Source: a virus (taxonomy: Duplodnaviria; Heunggongvirae; Uroviricota; Caudoviricetes). Taken from it: 44,629 bases of DNA. How positions within the stretch are numbered: the stretch's first letter is position 1; every line of letters begins with the position of its first letter. Below the pieces are notes generated by a model, which saw only the letters and a program-made list of their open reading frames with translations, had not been told where the DNA came from and ran no database searches. Of this stretch, positions 4,771 through 18,579 are shown one piece after another. The position numbers and the translations under genes are program-made. The stretch lies in IMG/VR virus record IMGVR_UViG_2609460219_000007; one strand, written 5' to 3'.

Positions 4771-4826
4771 AAACGGCGGCAGAGCAGTCACGGAGTAAAA
4801 CTGATACCGCCAAACGTCACCAGAAA
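4771..4826 (-). ncRNA. dicF: DicF small regulatory RNA
   Basis: Minus-strand sequence TTTCTGGTGACGTTTGGCGGTATCAGTTTTACTCCGTGACTGCTCTGCCGCC matches the recalled 53-nt DicF sequence almost base for base; located between the ydfABC-like region and dicB as in Qin. Confidence 0.8.
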
Positions 4827-6477: not shown

Positions 6478-6708
6478 ATGCTTAAAACTGACGCTCTTTT
6501 GTATTTCGGTTCAAAAACAAAACTTGCACAAGCAGCAGGTATTCGTTTGGCTTCGCTTTATAGCTGGAAAGGGGATTTAGTTCCCGAAGGTCGCGCGATG
6601 CGTCTACAGGAGGCATCTGGCGGGGAGCTTCAGTATGATCCCAAAGTTTATGATGAATATCGTAAGACGAAGCGGGCGGGGCGGTTGAACAATGAAAATC
6701 ACTCCTGA
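6478..6708 (+). CDS. dicC: Cro-like repressor DicC
   Basis: 76-aa product MLKTDALLYFGSKTKLAQAAGIRLASLYSWKGDLVPEGRAMRLQEASGGELQYDPKVYDEYRK... matches recalled DicC and length. Confidence 0.85.
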   Translation: MLKTDALLYFGSKTKLAQAAGIRLASLYSWKGDLVPEGRAMRLQEASGGELQYDPKVYDEYRKTKRAGRLNNENHS

Positions 6709-7213
6709 ACAGGCTCGTGAGGCTCTGGATGNCTGGATATGTCGACCAGGAATGACACAGGAGCAGGCGACGATATTAATCACTGAAGCATTCTGGGCTT
6801 TGAAAGAGCGCCCGAACATCGATGTTCAGCGTGTCACAGATGAAGGTGGCGCGGTTGATCAGCGAGCGCTTGGCGTTAATCGAGTGAAGATATTCGAACG
6901 CTGGAAGGCTATCGACACCAGGGATAAGCGTGAAAAGTTCAGGGCGCTAGTGCCTGCGATTATGGAGGCTATCCGGATTAGTGATTTCAGGTTGTATCGT
7001 GAGATCAGTGATGGAAAAAGTATTACGTACATGATCGCCGGGTTAAATAAAGAATATGGCGATGTGGTGGAATCCGGACTGCTTTTTGCAGATCCTGCCG
7101 TTGTAGATCGTGAAACTGACGAACTTATAGAAAAAGCAATTGCTTTCAAGCTTGCGTATCGACAGCAATACCAACAAAAAGCTGGATGGAATTATGAGTC
7201 TTCTTTTTGCTGA
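6692..7213 (+). CDS. Hypothetical early protein (CII position)
   Basis: 173-aa ORF overlapping the dicC stop, MKITPEQAREALD...; no motif recognised; one N. Confidence 0.5.
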   Translation: MKITPEQAREALDXWICRPGMTQEQATILITEAFWALKERPNIDVQRVTDEGGAVDQRALGVNRVKIFERWKAIDTRDKREKFRALVPAIMEAIRISDFRLYREISDGKSITYMIAGLNKEYGDVVESGLLFADPAVVDRETDELIEKAIAFKLAYRQQYQQKAGWNYESSFC

Positions 7214-8159
7214 ACGCCCACTGGTTATAAACACGCAGCTGGCAATGAAAATTGGCTTAAACGAAGCCATTGTTTTGCAACAACTGCACTACTGGTTGAG
7301 AGATACCAACTCCGGCATGGAATGTGATGGTGTTCGCTGGATTTATAACACAACGGAACAATGGCTGGAACAGTTCCCATTCTGGTCAGAGTCAACGTTA
7401 AAGCGCGCGTTTGCAAGTCTGAAAACGCTGGGGCTTTTGCGTTGTGAAAAGCTCAATAAATCAAAGCGCGATATGACCAATTTCTACACGATCAACTACG
7501 GGAGCGAGCTTTTAGATGGTGGCAAATTGAGCGAATCCATCGGTTTAAAATGCGCCGCTCCATCAGGTCAAAATGACACGATGGAAGAGGTCAAAATGAA
7601 ACGCTCCATTGGTTCAAAACGACTCAATGTCATCGGGTCAAAATGGCCTGATGATCTTACAGAGAATACAACAGAGATTACTACAGAGAATAAAAAGACT
7701 TCTCGTCCGGAAGCTTCGCAACCGGACCCGCAGACGGTTGAACAGGATTTTTTAACCCGACACCCTGACGCGGTTGTGTTCAGTGCGAAAAAACGCCAGT
7801 GGGGCAGCCAGGAAGATTTGGCGTGTGCGCAGTGGATCTGGGGGCGAATCGTGAGTCTTTACGAGCAGGCCGCCAGCGATGATGGCGAGATTTCGCGACC
7901 GAAAGAACCCAACTGGACCGCATGGGCCAACGACGTGCGCACAATGCGGATGCTGGATGGCAGAACTCACAGACAAATTTGTGAAATGTTTGGTCGGGTG
8001 CAGCGGGATCCATTCTGGGTAAAAAATATCATGAGTCCGTCAAAGCTTCGCGAAAAATGGGATGAACTGGTTATCCGCCTGGGGCGTTCGTCTGTACAGC
8101 GTTGTGTGAATCATATTTCTGAGCCGGATACCGAAATTCCGCCGGGCTTCAGGGGGTAA
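7194..8159 (+). CDS. Replication initiator / replisome organizer (lambda O-like role)
   Basis: N-terminal winged-helix-like segment (PLVINTQLAMKIGLNEAIVLQQLHYWL...), then a linker that contains an iteron array in the DNA, then a C-terminal domain; start chosen at MSLLFAERP (7140 also possible). Confidence 0.65.
   Translation: MSLLFAERPLVINTQLAMKIGLNEAIVLQQLHYWLRDTNSGMECDGVRWIYNTTEQWLEQFPFWSESTLKRAFASLKTLGLLRCEKLNKSKRDMTNFYTINYGSELLDGGKLSESIGLKCAAPSGQNDTMEEVKMKRSIGSKRLNVIGSKWPDDLTENTTEITTENKKTSRPEASQPDPQTVEQDFLTRHPDAVVFSAKKRQWGSQEDLACAQWIWGRIVSLYEQAASDDGEISRPKEPNWTAWANDVRTMRMLDGRTHRQICEMFGRVQRDPFWVKNIMSPSKLREKWDELVIRLGRSSVQRCVNHISEPDTEIPPGFRG
7542..7700. repeat. Putative phage replication origin: five ~23-bp-spaced GGT(C/T)AAAA(T/C)G iterons plus an A-rich ACAGAGA-repeat segment
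   Basis: Iterons at 7542, 7566, 7589, 7611 and 7636, followed by tacagagaatacaacagagattactacagagaataaaaag; lies inside the linker of the initiator gene as lambda ori lies inside O. Confidence 0.6.
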
Positions 8160-8199
8160 GTGTTAATTTCTGGTCATGAGGTAATTTTCAGGAGGGCTT

Positions 8200-8622
8200 G
8201 TGGCAAAAGTTTTTACACAAGAAGAGCGGGAAAAAATTAAAGGGCAGGTTGTTGAACTCGTACGCCGGAGTGGGCGTGAGACGTTACGGCAACTGGAAGT
8301 CAAGACAGGTGCGACAAGATATCTGATGAGCGTTCTCGCAAGAGAGCTGGTTGCCAGCGGCGATGTATACAACTCTGGTTACGGGTTATTCCCGTCTGAA
8401 CAGGCGCGTAAGGACTGGCAAAATGCCCGTAAAAAGCTCTCAAGGGTAAAGCTGAAGGAACCATCTGCGGTTGATCCGGACCTTATCTGGTCATTACCTG
8501 ACGGAGAAATACGTCGTTACGACAGGCGTCATAATATGATTTGTACTGAGTGTCGTAAAAGCGAAGTTATGCAGCGCATATTGTCGTTTTATCAGGGGGA
8601 TGTCCGGTATTTATTGAAGTGA
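8200..8622 (+). CDS. Hypothetical protein (replication-module neighbour)
   Basis: 140-aa ORF with GTG start preceded by AGGAGG at 8185-8190; no Walker motif, so not an obvious helicase loader. Confidence 0.5.
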   Translation: MAKVFTQEEREKIKGQVVELVRRSGRETLRQLEVKTGATRYLMSVLARELVASGDVYNSGYGLFPSEQARKDWQNARKKLSRVKLKEPSAVDPDLIWSLPDGEIRRYDRRHNMICTECRKSEVMQRILSFYQGDVRYLLK

Positions 8623-8816
8623 CGAGATTAAAGTGCATTAGTTCAGATGCAAATTGACATTTTGTGGCACAGGGTAGAGCTAGCGTGGTTGTCCGCTTTG
8701 TGCCAAAAGCAGACATTGATAACATTGAGATATGTTAATTTATAGGGAGCAGCTCAAGGCCATTGGAGCTTCCAGTTTTTGCCCCTGAAACCGTTCCCGA
8801 TGAGTACTTCCACCTG

Positions 8817-8832
8817 AAGACTGCGCAGTCTT
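8817..8832. terminator. Perfect palindrome AAGACTGCGCAGTCTT between convergent genes (possible bidirectional terminator)
   Basis: 16-bp perfect inverted repeat followed by AGTTTTCGTTTCC on the plus strand; lies 3' of both the 8200-8622 gene and the FRG gene. Confidence 0.3.
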
Positions 8833-8859
8833 AGTTTTCGTTTCCTTTAGTTTATCCCT

Positions 8860-10194
8860 TTATGATACCGATAAAAACTTTTTTGTAATTTCTGCTGCCG
8901 TTTTCTCCATGCTGGGATATACAGTGCTTTCGGATATATTAAGCTGTGCCAGCTCTTCCAGAATTTTATTTTTGTTCGCTATCTCCACTCTGTTAAGAGG
9001 AAACTCAGCATCTGTTTCCGGTAAAATGGGATCAAGTCCGAACAGAAGAAAAGCTCCTGCCTGAGATTGTATGCGTTCATTATTTATTTTTGCCTTAAGG
9101 AAAACAACTTTCTTTAAGTCATCAGGGATTATTCTGTTTCTGAAATATGATTTTTCATTCTGTATAAGGTCTGCAAGTTTATCAGTGAGTTCAGGTAACT
9201 CCATACTACCTTTTCTGGCATCAATGGAAGACAATTTTTCCAACTCTTCGTAAGATAAAAGTGATAAGTTTGCTATACAGCTCACTGTGTCTGAGTCGAA
9301 ATATTTAATTTTCTTTCTGTTTGTTGAAAACGCAATCACCTGTCCGTTTTCATCGGGGTTCGAACAGCAAGCAAAATATAATGCTATCAGTGGGTTAGAT
9401 GTAATGTCTAAGAGTCTTGTAGGCAAGCCATAATGCTGCATGCGGACAAGTTTATCAATCGTAAATTTATCCTCCTTAAATTCATTTGGTCTTGCGCTGA
9501 GTATTTCACGTACTAAATCAGATTCTGAAGCAAGATGCCTGTACGTCCCGTTTTGATTTTTTCTGTAAAGAGAGGGGACAAGCTCATATGAGCTTTTAGA
9601 GTGTCCACGATAGAAGGTAATGAGACCATCACGAAAGTTTTTCTTAATGAAATTAAGATAATCTATAATATTCTCGACTACTGGGTATGTTTGTTTTTTT
9701 AATTTGATTGTACCTTTCAGATGGCTATTTTTTTTGTTTAAACCAAGTAATTCCAGAACAATATTCAAATCCTTATTTTTTACTGCCCAATGTGTACGAC
9801 TTAACCCGAAAGATCCTAGTCCTAGGGTTTCTTTATATAATGTCGTTTGGGGATTCGTTATTTCTCCAAAATCATGATTAATCTTGAAAGAAAATAAAAT
9901 ATCGCCACCATCTTTACGTAAATTTCTTATTTCCCCAAGCCTGATCCTGATGTACTTGTTTGTATCATATTCATCATCTTTTGTATAAATTTCGGTCATG
10001 AACAACACCGGTAGCTTGGCGAGTACTCTTAAGGTATCGGGTCTTATTGGTGTTAATTTTCTGTAAATATTGCTTGGGGTGCCTTCCAGCATGCGGGACA
10101 TCGAGAAGCTTTCCTTGCCTTCTTTAAGCTCAGGGTCCATACACGGCCAGCGGTCAAAAACGTCCGGTTCTCCGGCCATGATTAAGCTAAACAT
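8860..10194 (-). CDS. FRG-domain protein with uncharacterised N-terminal domain (candidate defence/abortive-infection gene)
   Basis: 444-aa ORF with strong RBS (AGGAGA, 5-nt spacer, ATG); central motifs ...ITFYRGHSKSSYELVPSLYR... and ...MQHYGLPTRLLDITSNPLIALYFAC... match the FRG domain family as I recall it; the gene is visibly AT-rich relative to its flanks. Confidence 0.75.
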   Translation of the reverse strand: MFSLIMAGEPDVFDRWPCMDPELKEGKESFSMSRMLEGTPSNIYRKLTPIRPDTLRVLAKLPVLFMTEIYTKDDEYDTNKYIRIRLGEIRNLRKDGGDILFSFKINHDFGEITNPQTTLYKETLGLGSFGLSRTHWAVKNKDLNIVLELLGLNKKNSHLKGTIKLKKQTYPVVENIIDYLNFIKKNFRDGLITFYRGHSKSSYELVPSLYRKNQNGTYRHLASESDLVREILSARPNEFKEDKFTIDKLVRMQHYGLPTRLLDITSNPLIALYFACCSNPDENGQVIAFSTNRKKIKYFDSDTVSCIANLSLLSYEELEKLSSIDARKGSMELPELTDKLADLIQNEKSYFRNRIIPDDLKKVVFLKAKINNERIQSQAGAFLLFGLDPILPETDAEFPLNRVEIANKNKILEELAQLNISESTVYPSMEKTAAEITKKFLSVS

Positions 10195-10694
10195 CGCAAT
10201 CTCCTAAATTTACTTACTAAAGTCAGTGTATTTTTATCATGTTGCTTCATTGTGTATGAAAGTAACATTGGTTGTCCATGCTCGTATGCCTCTCATAATT
10301 CACAAATTTGCGAATATTTTTTATAAAAATTCAAAACTGATAGGGTGACACAATCAAAATTCACAAAGTGAACCTGCTTCTAATGTGGTTACGGTACGAT
10401 CATGTGGGCAATTTCCATTGCTGAAAACTCCGGGATCAACCATGATGTATGAGCTGTAGTATGAAGTCTCTTGCTATCCGGTTAAGTAAATGTCTGCTTC
10501 TCACTCAAAGCGGACTAGAAGGTTAGCTTGCGTCGGACTTGGCGTATTTAAAGAAGTGCTGGTGGTAACTGGTTGTTGTGTTCCATTTCTACAAAACAAA
10601 ATCACAGAAACTATACCCAATAGTTATATTGAATCAATGATGAGACAGCCTCATATTTATCAGAACTGGTGTACGTCCAATACAGGAGGTTGTC

Positions 10695-10784
10695 GTGCTG
10701 GTTCTCAAATGTGCGCTAGCTATTGCGGCTGTAATGGCAATTTATTGTCTTGCTGTTGTTCTTACGGATCGCCTTTCTGATTGA
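10695..10784 (+). CDS. Candidate 29-aa hydrophobic peptide (Hok-like transmembrane segment or type I toxin-like)
   Basis: GTG start 5 nt after a perfect AGGAGG (10684-10689); product (M)LVLKCALAIAAVMAIYCLAVVLTDRLSD is almost entirely a TM helix; about 210 bp upstream of hok. Confidence 0.3.
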   Translation: MLVLKCALAIAAVMAIYCLAVVLTDRLSD

Positions 10785-10995
10785 TTTTATATTGGCGAGG
10801 TGACGGGAGTTAAGTAGAATTGCTGCGGGTGCTTGAGGCTATCTGCCTCAGGCATGAACACCAACGGCAGATAGAGAAAAGCCCCAGTTAACATTACGCG
10901 TCCTGCAAGACGCTTAACATTAATCTGAGGCCAATTTCATGCTAGACATATGTAGGTTAGCCTCTTACGTGCCGAAAGGCAAGGAGAAGCAGGCT

Positions 10996-11151
10996 ATGAA
11001 GCAGCAAAAGGCGATGTTAATCGNCCTGATCGTCATCTGTTTAACCGTCATAGTGACGGCACTGGTAACGAGGAAAGACCTCTGCGAGGTACGAATCCGA
11101 ACCGGCCAGACGGAGGTCGCTGTCTTCACAGCTTACGAACCTGAGGAGTAA
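10996..11151 (+). CDS. hokD: Hok/Gef family type I toxin (HokD/RelF-like)
   Basis: 51-aa product MKQQKAMLI.LIVICLTVIVTALVTRKDLCEVRIRTGQTEVAVFTAYEPEE matches recalled HokD; AAGGAG RBS; in-frame upstream extension (MLDICRLAS...) in the ORF track is probably not translated. Confidence 0.85.
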   Translation: MKQQKAMLIXLIVICLTVIVTALVTRKDLCEVRIRTGQTEVAVFTAYEPEE

Positions 11152-11220
11152 GAGACCCGGCGAGGGAGAAATCCCTCGCCACCTCTGATGTGGCAGGCAT
11201 CCTCAACGCACCCGCACTTA

Positions 11221-11251
11221 ACCCGCTTCGGCGGGTTTTTGTTTTTATTTT
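11221..11251 (+). terminator. Rho-independent terminator after hok
   Basis: ACCCGC-TTCG-GCGGGT hairpin followed by TTTTTGTTTTTATTTT. Confidence 0.7.
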
Positions 11252-11366
11252 CAACGCGTTTGAAGTTCTGGACGGTGCCGGAATAGAATCAAAAATACTT
11301 AAGTAGCGCGCAGGGATAAGAGGGATGGTCCCTTAAAGGGAGAGCTAATTATCCGGAAGGATTCTG

Positions 11367-11618
11367 ATGATGAACATCGAAGAACTGCGTAAAATTTTTT
11401 GTGAAGATGGCCTCTATGCTGTGTGCGTTGAAAATGGAAATCTTGTTAGTCATTACCGCATTATGTGTTTGCGAAAGAATGGGGCTGCGTTAATTAATTT
11501 TGTGGATGGTCGAGTGACAGACGGATTTATCTTGCGCGAAGGTGAGTTTGTCACTTCATTACAGGCACTGAAAGAGATCGGAATAAAAGCAGGCTTTTCA
11601 GCTTTTGCAGAAGAATAA
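11367..11618 (+). CDS. rem: Rem-like small protein (83 aa)
   Basis: 83-aa ORF MMNIEELRKIFCEDGLYAVCVENG...; length and position between hokD and the ydfU-like gene match Qin rem; not search-verified. Confidence 0.5.
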   Translation: MMNIEELRKIFCEDGLYAVCVENGNLVSHYRIMCLRKNGAALINFVDGRVTDGFILREGEFVTSLQALKEIGIKAGFSAFAEE

Positions 11619-11684
11619 ACTCATCTACAATCTTGCGCGGGGCTGAACTCCCGCTGAGTAACACCGTGCCACCGGAGAAAACCG

Positions 11685-11963
11685 ATGGCACGCAACGTAA
11701 AATATTACAATTCTGATAATTCGCCCGTTCTTGCCTGCACGCACGGGCGGTATTCTCACGCATTCAAGTCTGAATGGTTCCAGCACCCTCCATGCACTGC
11801 AGAACAGGCCGAATGGCTGATTCATTCTTACCGCAGGCGCGGGTTCGAGGTTAAGAAAGCTCTCAGTCTCGACTATCGGCACTGGATAATCTCTGTCAGG
11901 CTGCCTTATTCCGAACGCCCACCACGTGCGTCCCGCACTTTCCAGCAACGGATCTGGAGGTAA
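11685..11963 (+). CDS. Hypothetical protein (92 aa), translationally coupled to the downstream gene
   Basis: ORF ends TAA at 11961-11963, one base before the GTG of the next gene; contains Cys/His residues. Confidence 0.4.
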   Translation: MARNVKYYNSDNSPVLACTHGRYSHAFKSEWFQHPPCTAEQAEWLIHSYRRRGFEVKKALSLDYRHWIISVRLPYSERPPRASRTFQQRIWR

Positions 11964-14414: not shown

Positions 14415-14714
14415 AAAAATTCCTTAATACTGATAACTTGGCGCACTATACACACGTTCCTGAAGAAAGCTATAGTTTTTTGATGGGGTTGAAGATGGCT
14501 GGATGTCTAAAATAAACATTGCTTCATATGTTCAACTATGCGTTAATGATTGCGTCGGTTTGAAGAACAGACGATATACGAAGTAGTTTACTAAAGCAGT
14601 TCTCATTTCAGGTGTTATTCACTTATTCCTTCTTTGAGTCTCTCCAATTAAGTACGAAGTCGTTTCTGTTATGCAAACCATTTATGCCGAAAGGCTCAAG
14701 TTAAGGAATGTAGA

Positions 14715-14930
14715 ATGTCAAATAAAATGACTGGTTTAGTAAAATGGTTTAACGCTGATAAAGGTTTCGGCTTTATTTCTCCTGTTGATGGTAGTAAAGA
14801 TGTGTTTGTGCATTTTTCTGCGATTCAGAATGATAATTATCGAACCTTATTTGAAGGTCAAAAGGTTACCTTCTCTATAGAGAGTGGTGCTAAAGGTCCT
14901 GCAGCAGCAAATGTCATCATTACTGATTAA
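14715..14930 (+). CDS. cspB: Cold shock protein CspB-like
   Basis: 71-aa product [38 protein letters not shown]... with RNP motifs; long upstream leader as in cspA-family genes. Confidence 0.85.
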
Positions 14931-15213
14931 AATTCATCGCTCGTCTGTATACGATAACGAAGAAGGCTGATGCCTGAGTAGAGATACGGACAGAGTAGTG
15001 AATATTGGATCTCTTTAATAAAAATAAGGAGGTCCAATACATGAAACAATGGCCAGCATATTTGGCAAAACCTTAATCAGGAAAAGTATGCTAACCATTG
15101 TGGTGAAGTGCAGGTTTGCTGCATGAATAGTTTTACAGCAGAAGCTAACTGCTGGCATGGCAAAACAAAGTGCGTAAGTGGATGACTCCCACAAAAAGCA
15201 CCACAATCTCAAA

Positions 15214-17804: not shown

Positions 17805-18167
17805 ATTAATATTAAATCGGATTATTTTTAGCGCTGAATGTGAAATTTAAATAAAAAGGACTCTTCCATGAGTCAAAATCCTTGAAATCTTAAGGGTAAG
17901 ATAAAAGGTCATTAGACAGAATGACACGTTTTATTAATAAATAAAGCTATTGTTTCATTCGTGTGTTTTTCTTTACAAAAGTAATCCTTGCTATGGTTGG
18001 TTAATCATGCGTTAATGGTGTTCTGGTTTGTTACAAAATTATCTGAAGCAGTCATTGTTATAATTTTATTATTTGTACCTCTTGAGATTTCCTTGTTGGT
18101 TTTTCTCTCTGATATTTTTTTTCGGACCATTCTGCCCAAGGGCTAACTTCTTCAAAAGGTAATAATG

Positions 18168-18380
18168 ATGTCTAACAAAATGACTGGTTTAGTGAAATGG
18201 TTTAACCCTGAAAAAGGTTTTGGTTTCATCACGCCGAAAGATGGTAGCAAAGATGTGTTTGTGCATTTCTCAGCTATTCAGAGCAACGATTTCAAAACGT
18301 TAACTGAGAATCAGGAAGTCGAATTTGGTATTGAGAACGGACCTAAAGGCCCTGCAGCTGTTCATGTAGTGGCACTTTGA
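18168..18380 (+). CDS. cspI: Cold shock protein CspI-like
   Basis: 70-aa product [70 protein letters not shown]. Confidence 0.85.
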
Positions 18381-18579
18381 GGTAGAAAATATTACAAACC
18401 ATATTCACTTTAGATGCCCGTGTTGCCATGGTTCTCAGTATAGAACATCATCTTTTGATGTTTCTGACAGAAATCCTTTCGGGGCAAAATGTATCTTTTG
18501 TAAATCAATGATGATTACATTTGATAATATTTCACAATACTTAAATGTTAGCCATCTGTCGTTAGATTTAAGAAAGTGA
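18370..18579 (+). pseudogene. Start-less zinc-ribbon reading frame paralogous to the 15293-15463 protein (possible remnant)
   Basis: Open frame ...HFRCPCCHGSQYRTSSFDVSDRNPFGAKCIFCKSMMITFDN... with no ATG/GTG/TTG before the Cys motif; sits between cspI and its terminator. Confidence 0.3.

Follow-up and report, generated by a model that had tools for sequence, protein, structure and literature searches.

In Metis and PUA-Cal-HAD, a PUA-like N-terminal sensor binds N6-methyl-dAMP (m6-dAMP) from the phage-degraded, Dam-methylated host chromosome and thereby switches on the calcineurin-like phosphoesterase to which it is joined, so that NAD+ or deoxynucleoside triphosphates are destroyed, as shown experimentally; fusions of this PUA-like family to TIR, HEPN, DrHyd, HNH and McrB exist as well (10.1101/2025.11.05.686725; 10.64898/2026.01.15.699771). 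Frg, in work from the Aravind laboratory (PMC9503650; also PMC12522546), is a clade of the ADP-ribosyltransferase (ART) superfamily and a predicted antiviral effector, possibly an NADase. A single gene with an FRG domain also defines PDC-S15 in PADLOC, where PDC stands for 145 candidate systems predicted by "guilt-by-embedding" in BREX, DISARM and type I restriction-modification loci (preprint 10.1101/2024.01.29.577857). The DNA analyzed here (the window, 44,629 nucleotides; IMG/VR record IMGVR_UViG_2609460219_000007) is a Qin-type lambdoid prophage adjoining rspB, and it carries a gene for an FRG-domain protein of 444 aa (8860..10194, minus strand; ATG start, stop codon at 8860-8862). We propose that the cassette holding this gene (8720..10488, minus strand) is a stand-alone, prophage-borne abortive-infection anti-phage gene with sensor and effector in one polypeptide, a reading to which we assign a probability of roughly one half. 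That the cassette serves defense in some form is likely, and that the N-terminal domain (N-domain) is the sensor and FRG the effector is, with somewhat less assurance, probable.

The proposed layout of an N-terminal PUA-like sensor and a C-terminal enzymatic effector is that of Metis (MisA/MisB) and PUA-Cal-HAD, in which the sensor is likewise exchangeable among effectors that include TIR. Infection is abortive in these systems, as we suggest for the FRG protein, after their effector has drained a nucleotide pool essential to the cell (NAD+ for MisA), but that effector is a calcineurin-like metallophosphatase, whereas the one here is FRG/ART-like. The FRG protein is a parallel to these systems and not a member of them. 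TIR-SAVED, TIR-STING and PycTIR also combine a sensor with an NAD-consuming effector in one chain, as proposed here, and the N-domain is fused to that TIR family (PF10137) in 23 of 102 relatives; these proteins need a cognate cyclase, however, and the FRG cassette is without one. The modification-dependent restriction enzymes of the PUA superfamily (EVE/YTH/ASCH-HNH, e.g., VcaM4I; PMC6765204) have a nuclease effector, in contrast to the FRG protein, which has none. Compared with these VcaM4I-type enzymes and with the EVE-associated defense contexts (PMC7641849), the partners of the N-domain are signaling or abortive rather than DNA-cleaving, and its sequence belongs to none of the EVE, YTH and ASCH families.

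The closest match in defense databases lies in the C-terminal part, where 14 PDC-S15 hidden Markov models match the protein, namely PDLC04936 (E = 6.7e-99, aa 166-440, model positions 17-296 of 300) and 13 more. These models stop short of the N-terminal 165 aa, and PDC-S15 is found embedded in BREX, DISARM and type I restriction-modification loci, whereas the present copy is prophage cargo; membership says nothing on mechanism. The Frg clade of the Aravind laboratory belongs to the same Pfam family, and the weak ART matches of our structural comparison are compatible with it, but the available text of that work treats Frg as an effector domain, as opposed to the combination of sensor and effector that we envisage. 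The idea of a candidate defense gene and its predicted biochemical class are therefore not new, being already in the literature and databases. New are the definition of the cassette and its hotspot, the description of the N-terminus as a predicted PUA-like, shuffled sensor family, and a specific sensor-effector model.

The two predicted domains

RefSeq lists the 444-aa product with 100% identity as WP_001774471.1 ("FRG domain-containing protein") in 15 complete Escherichia coli genomes, and phrog_4962 matches it over its full length (E = 1e-84). Its predicted model has two confident domains, aa 1-150 (9745..10194, minus strand) and aa 172-444 (8863..9681, minus strand), separated by a linker (aa 151-171; 9682..9744, minus strand) of low confidence (predicted local distance difference test score 43-58) whose alignment columns vary in length and sequence. 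The FRG domain is widespread, with 4231 homologues at E <= 1e-3 among 8000 candidates scored. Proteins of E. coli, Aeromonas and Rhizobiales share the full-length architecture (441-463 aa) at identities as low as 41%; each half contains residues that are invariant across the homologue alignment, and the architecture appears to be under purifying selection.

The N-domain, our proposed sensor, is predicted to adopt a PUA-like pseudo-barrel of the EVE/YTH/ASCH type at moderate Z (about 7). Its predicted-structure matches include YTH readers of N6-methyladenine (m6A), ASCH, the modification-dependent nuclease VcaM4I and McrB N-terminal domains, and the higher-scoring ones are all base or nucleotide readers. 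Eight residues stand out by conservation (R34, E37, T39, E68, R133, T134, H135 and W136, the last being the one invariant aromatic), and this set of Arg, Thr, His, Trp and Glu is of a kind that may hold a nucleotide. The N-domains are acidic, with a median pI of 5.16 and 93% below 7, which fits a small-ligand sensor marginally better than a polymer binder. No annotation of the N-domain was found in Pfam (27 members, E <= 10), NCBIfam or PHROG. A search of solved-structure sequences with the family profile returned a lone match at E = 2.5, which we rejected as spurious.

Searched against 1.84 billion representative proteins, the N-domain profile found relatives in 886 clusters (E <= 1e-3), of which 222 reach E <= 1e-10, in proteins of many lengths and sometimes in an internal position. 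Across 102 diverse relatives W136 is invariant, and R34, E37, T39, P62, E68, G87, R133, T134, H135 and A137 are each kept in at least 90%. The partners in these relatives are the CAP12/Pycsar-effector TIR (PF10137; 23 proteins), FRG (17), Abi_C (6), TIR_2 (5), protein kinase (4) and TIR (4), together with single cases of AbiJ_NTD3, SLFN/AlbA_2, SEFIR, EAD2, FGE-sulfatase, class-III nucleotide cyclase and CD-NTase. Counted as effector classes, these amount to FRG, three TIR families, protein kinases, Abi_C, Schlafen/AlbA_2 and nucleotide cyclases. About a third of the relatives have a C-terminal region (~150 aa) with no Pfam match, which may represent further unknown effector domains. Shuffling among immune effectors is what one would expect of an input (sensor) domain, and it places FRG where an NADase-type TIR otherwise stands.

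Several of the individual architectures are worth recording. The N-domain is joined to a class-III nucleotide cyclase in P0247 and to Schlafen/AlbA_2 in P0209; P0234 combines EAD2, N-domain, kinase and FGE-sulfatase, and P0195 combines AbiJ_NTD3, N-domain and TIR. P0193 (L014:6001-8283, metagenome contig ERZ25070530) is a 760-aa protein that joins a CD-NTase (PADLOC Cyclase, 1e-112) with the N-domain and FRG. Transposases lie on either side of its gene, and further CBASS genes are absent from the vicinity; P0193 could be a cyclase, sensor and effector in one self-contained protein, or else an artifact of fusion. Two apparent links to described systems were dropped: the match of kinase-fused relatives to the validated PD-T4-6 runs through the kinase only (aa 223-482 of P0189), and that to PDC-S35 involves the TIR part alone. 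No validated system is yet known to share the N-domain sensor.

The C-terminal domain contains the sole Pfam domain of the protein, FRG (PF08867; 9349..9618, minus strand; aa 193-282), at 79.9 bits against a cutoff of 25 and over profile positions 3-92 of 94. The eponymous F-R-G motif is F194-Y-R196-G197-H198, in which R196, G197 and H198 are invariant in 36 homologues, and the second motif, QHYGLPTRLLDITSNPLIALYFA, spans aa 253-275. Further invariant residues are E224, E230, D247, R251, Q253, H254, R260, D263, T265, N267 and P268, followed in the C-terminal part by S301-C306 (SDTVSC), N372, R374 and Q378, with G380 and F382 in the same motif region. For an ART triad (H-Y-E or R-S-E), a tentative placement by sequence and secondary structure only has R196 ending the first strand, T265/S266 ending the strand that precedes a helix, and Q378 instead of Glu before the later strand. 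That FRG acts on NAD+, as the analogy with TIR and the ART superfamily would have it, is in our judgment an even call.

A sequence-only reading of this DNA had already pointed to the FRG motifs and to searches of Pfam and defense-system databases, and both motifs and the matches to PF08867 and PDC-S15 bear it out. It had left the N-terminal ~170 aa as uncharacterized and suggested structure prediction, which now allows this region to be assigned as a PUA-like fold module shared with TIR, kinase and cyclase proteins. Its C-terminal "extension" has to be redrawn: the PDC-S15 models run to aa 440 and invariant motifs (SDTVSC, 301-306; N372-F382) lie there, and the region after the Pfam match is predicted to be part of the conserved catalytic domain. 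Its remark that the FRG family has no established function holds for experiments but overlooks the prediction of an ART-superfamily/NADase effector (PMC9503650, PMC12522546) and the PDC-S15 entry in PADLOC.

The DNA-reader structural matches of the N-domain, along with Scabin, would also suit a type IV-like restriction, in which the N-domain reads modified bases (hydroxymethylcytosine, its glucosylated form or m6A) in phage DNA and FRG ADP-ribosylates that DNA, as in DarT, Scabin or pierisin, blocking replication without cell death. We regard such a mechanism as rather unlikely. The other N-domain partners (NADase-type TIR, kinases, nucleotide cyclases, SEFIR and EAD2) are signaling or abortive rather than DNA-cutting, and no fusion to HNH, PD-(D/E)XK or McrB occurs among the 102 relatives. 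The acidity of the N-domains, unusual for polymer-binding readers, points weakly the same way.

The cyclase in P0193 raises a different prospect, that of an orphan second-messenger effector whose N-domain would receive a cyclic oligonucleotide or cyclic mononucleotide made by a CBASS- or Pycsar-type cyclase elsewhere, with FRG as an NADase-type output. The CD-NTase of P0193 is complete, and the commonest N-domain partner is the CAP12/Pycsar-effector TIR family, which, according to the discussion of a recent study, is otherwise coupled to SAVED, STING or cyclic mononucleotide sensors (10.64898/2026.01.15.699771). No cyclase is annotated within +/-9 kb of the FRG gene, however, no tblastn match to a CD-NTase or class-III cyclase was found in the window, and none lies beside the stand-alone homologues examined (Pfam neighbor tables). 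P0193 itself is without a CBASS neighborhood, and in P0247 the N-domain precedes the cyclase, which fits an input sensor better than a receptor for the product. The chance that the FRG protein is such an effector seems slim to us.

A cargo slot in a Qin-type prophage

We compared the locus (query 7600-11700) with 5426 complete E. coli genomes. The FRG region is present in 41 of them, whereas the flanking parts are common, at more than 1200 to 4800 genomes, and at least 80% of the query is present in just 15. Homology to prophages with other cargo (L003, L004, L006, L007 and L010) stops at 8701-8726 and restarts at 10489-10522 (blastn), so that the swapped cassette comprises the FRG gene with 140 nt of noncoding DNA on its 3' side (8720-8859) and 294 nt on its 5' side (10195-10488). 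Its GC content is 0.375, compared with 0.48-0.50 in the flanks; the coding sequence has 0.372 (0.355 at third codon positions) against a window mean of 0.473, and 17 of 433 segments of the same size are as low or lower, so the gene is AT-rich but short of the window's extreme. To the left lies a DUF977 family gene (8200..8622, plus strand), annotated as such by RefSeq in locus L001 and all alternative-cargo loci, and to the right, outside the cassette, a hok/sok type I toxin-antitoxin (10827..11151, plus strand).

Between these flanks, other prophages carry a HEPN-domain protein (L003), an AIPR protein matching PADLOC AbiU at 1e-23 (L004), a SIR2 protein with IS481 (L005), a DUF7380 protein matching PADLOC PDC-S39 at 3e-102 (L006), a DUF5677 protein (L007), an alpha/beta hydrolase (L008), QueH with a methyltransferase remnant (L009), two hypothetical proteins (L010) or small phage open reading frames (L011). 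Some of the cargos beyond those matched by defense models, such as HEPN, are defense-typical by domain, and others are not obviously defensive. The DUF977-hok/sok slot is a true cargo hotspot, enriched in defense genes but not exclusive to them.

The gene also recurs in other phages and slots. Phage Tritos has a copy 97.5% identical in the identical position, and phage P2_2H1 carries the gene as well. In P2-like prophages, paralogues with 45% and 59% identity occupy the space from the portal gene to gpA, a hotspot studied by Rousset et al. (PMC9122126). The 45% paralogue (L017:7474-8710 and L012:1793-3029, both minus strand) adjoins a 106-aa open reading frame and a 316-aa reverse transcriptase with a weak RVT_1 match, labeled "polymerase" in P2_2H1; this pair looks like a retron-type defense sharing the P2 hotspot. 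The 59% paralogue adjoins two unknown genes, and the P2-like prophages that carry it have, beside gpA, a gene for a 151-aa DUF3850/ASCH (PUA-like) protein (L022:8613-9068, minus strand; also L023 and L024), which might conceivably serve as a ligand sponge or decoy. A Klebsiella homologue (50% identity) lies in a P2-like prophage between gpU and the tail-fiber gene, and a Sinorhizobium homologue (42%) in an integrase-flanked island. No neighbor gene recurs across the five different contexts examined, and the FRG cassette is a single-gene unit.

Within the cassette, a Shine-Dalgarno sequence AGGAG (10201..10205, minus strand) stands 6 nt before the ATG, the sequence reading TTTAGGAGATTGCG and then ATG. 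A promoter-like site, TGGACA-18-CACAAT (10249..10278, minus strand), lies 55-84 nt upstream of the ATG; it is a consensus match only (9/12), and with 12 such sites in the scanned region against 6.7 +/- 2.9 expected it is weak evidence for a promoter of the FRG gene. Near the 3' end of the gene, the folds at 8806-8852 (plus strand), 8720-8859 (minus) and 8640-8760 (minus) have z values of -1.1 to -2.0 and are not significant as terminator hairpins, and a pattern scan for terminators found none within the cassette.

Most of what the sequence-only reading had said of the locus is upheld by these comparisons. Its 444-aa open reading frame was recovered at the same coordinates, strand and start; the gene is AT-rich within the limit given above, has the strong ribosome-binding site it described, and lies on the minus strand between two plus-strand neighbors. 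The view of the slot as one that swaps defense-type cargo is borne out by the AIPR/AbiU-like, SIR2, HEPN, PDC-S39/DUF7380 and DUF5677 proteins, as well as QueH and the hydrolase, found between the same flanks, and the comparison across related prophages that it had recommended yielded defined cassette ends. The gene is neither a conserved core gene nor of normal composition, and the idea of a single-gene system agrees with the lack of a recurring partner in five contexts. Gene order and the tblastn results described below also agree with its placement of the FRG gene in the relBE slot of K-12 Qin, with relBE gone.

In K-12 Qin the order is rem-hokD-relE-relB-ydfV-flxA-ydfW-ydfX-dicC-dicA. The relBE operon, like the FRG gene, lies immediately upstream of hokD in an intermodule position of a Qin-type prophage, but the two have no kinship in sequence or architecture. 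We found no tblastn match in the window to relE or relB (E <= 1e-3), ydfV or flxA, while hokD, ydfX, dicC and dicA match at 96-100%. K-12 homology resumes only at 10982 (L002:13289), 14 nt before the hokD start codon, in contrast to ~10489 for the other cargos. The two slots are thus positionally equivalent, with different breakpoints. It follows from this junction that K-12 hokD is without the sok/mok regulatory region that is intact in the window.

The left part of the window runs integrase, excisionase, exonuclease, ydfD, dicB, DicF RNA, ydfA, a dicA-like repressor and a dicC-like cro, and continues with a YdaT-family gene, a replication gene, DUF977, FRG (minus strand), hok/sok, rem, ydfU, ydfT(Q), csp genes and lysis genes. 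The replication module is entirely lost from K-12. The K-12 ydfX product (96 aa) is 96% identical to the part encoded by codons 1-93 of the YdaT-family gene that is intact here (173 aa, 6692-7213), and ydfX is thus a truncated 5' remnant of the K-12 deletion. In the hok/sok region, Rfam sok (RF01794) scores 114.3 bits at 10827-11001 against a gathering score of 59, and hokD (10996-11151) is 98% identical to that of K-12. The ~340 nt directly upstream (10490-10826) are ~97% conserved in many prophages irrespective of cargo and hold an unannotated, putative Cys-rich open reading frame of 96 aa (10490..10780, plus strand; …CASYCGCNGNLLSCCCSYGSPF), though the stretch may be regulatory; hok is probably transcribed from a promoter-like site at 10792-10820. 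The DicF small RNA (4774-4825, minus strand; Rfam 72.5 bits) and two cspA-type thermoregulator 5' untranslated regions upstream of cspB-/cspI-like genes (14554-14946, plus strand, 158.8 bits; 18010-18426, plus strand, 110.1 bits) are ordinary Qin features. Scattered through the window are 32 isolated single N bases at irregular spacing (~10 bases to 5 kb, mean ~1.4 kb), none inside the FRG coding sequence; they give X in several translations (e.g., dicA-like, YdaT-like and the hokD leader) and look like deliberate masking or consensus ambiguities.

The presence of relBE at the same position in K-12 and the adjacency of hok/sok could be taken to mean that the FRG gene is an addiction or stabilization module, or a nondefense moron, that is, a toxic ART-like enzyme that retains the prophage or one that modifies host proteins like the T4 ARTs Alt and Mod. 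Several cargos of the slot (QueH, the alpha/beta hydrolase and the small phage open reading frames) are likewise not recognizable defense genes. An antitoxin-like neighbor, however, is missing next to the gene, and no second gene is conserved in the five contexts. Moreover, the sensor-effector architecture is common to TIR, Abi, kinase and Schlafen proteins, the PDC-S15 family is defined by its embedding in BREX, DISARM and type I restriction-modification loci, and the gene points against the lytic operons. We give the addiction or moron explanation little credence.

Proposed mechanism and its meaning

In the abortive-infection model that we favor, the FRG gene would have a promoter of its own and be transcribed in the direction opposite to the phage early operon, and the lysogen would therefore contain the protein. 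Upon infection by a foreign lytic phage, the pocket of the N-domain (R34, E37, T39, E68, R133-T134-H135-W136) would bind an infection-specific ligand, most likely a modified-base nucleotide or another nucleotide-type small molecule, by analogy with the PUA-like sensors that bind m6-dAMP. Binding would release or oligomerize FRG, as an enzyme of the ART superfamily, and FRG would then consume NAD+ or ADP-ribosylate an essential target. Phage replication would stop, and host growth probably with it. That the trigger is specifically a modified nucleotide is only a tentative suggestion drawn from this analogy. With similar reserve, we suggest that the N-terminal 150 aa may belong to a new, un-annotated PUA-like immune sensor family (R-x-x-E-x-T ... 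E ... R-T-H-W) that detects a phage-induced, nucleotide-type danger signal, either a modified mononucleotide set free as host DNA is broken down or a modified base specific to the phage, and that is plugged into at least six effector classes, here possibly switching on FRG as an NADase or ADP-ribosyltransferase. Lambdoid phages do not degrade host DNA. A sensor of host-DNA breakdown would thus, if the model is true, allow the prophage to kill cells that a competing lytic phage has infected and yet stay silent when the prophage itself is induced.

Several observations weigh against this model. On the sensor side, the PUA-like assignment comes from a predicted structure at the Z given above; EVE, YTH and ASCH (PF01878, PF04146 and PF04266) match none of 27 N-domains at E <= 10, nor any of the 102 relatives at E <= 1e-3, and Foldseek found nothing in the PDB at E <= 1e-3. 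The W-rich motif II (VWWGWWxKxxExxP) and motif V (TPxYY) of the m6-dAMP sensors are lacking, with no WW or TPxYY in aa 1-168 and a single invariant Trp, although the sensor families are set apart here by published motifs only. Metis requires a phosphatase partner against autoimmunity, whereas no HAD phosphatase lies beside the FRG gene in L001 or in the homologue contexts. On the effector side, the structural matches of the FRG domain to the ART fold are weak, and the position expected for the ART catalytic Glu holds the invariant Gln Q378, with no invariant Glu (a purely positional assignment). As for the locus, of the eight alternative cargos tested just three match PADLOC models. The literature searched contained no experimental study of an FRG or PDC-S15 protein, and the main texts of Rousset 2022 and Vassallo 2022 do not mention FRG; the PDC systems are untested according to their authors (10.1101/2024.01.29.577857), and DefensePredictor excluded them as unvalidated.

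A trigger of protein nature, with the N-domain recognizing a phage protein and thereby activating FRG, would be conceivable for a PUA-like fold that also serves as the substrate-binding N-domain of Lon, but it is a poor prospect given that the higher-scoring structural matches are all base or nucleotide readers, that the conserved Arg, Thr, His and Trp with two Glu look like a nucleotide pocket, and that the experimentally characterized PUA-like immune sensors bind a mononucleotide.

If the sensor-effector model is true, the FRG family gains its first function, through the first FRG enzyme that is experimentally tractable. The gene is compact, native to E. coli, borne by phages and prophages, and bounded by clear cassette ends, which makes for easy cloning and testing in K-12, and the domain analysis turns it into a specific, falsifiable model of a sensor pocket and an NAD-directed effector that names the residues to mutate. 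The DUF977-hok/sok hotspot of Qin-type lambdoid prophages could in turn be mined for further systems. The model ties the FRG gene to the recent finding that bacteria sense phage attack via modified mononucleotides. Once found, the ligand of the N-domain would explain the trigger of many systems, spread over the ~900 protein clusters in which this domain occurs with effectors of the TIR, kinase, Abi, Schlafen and cyclase types.

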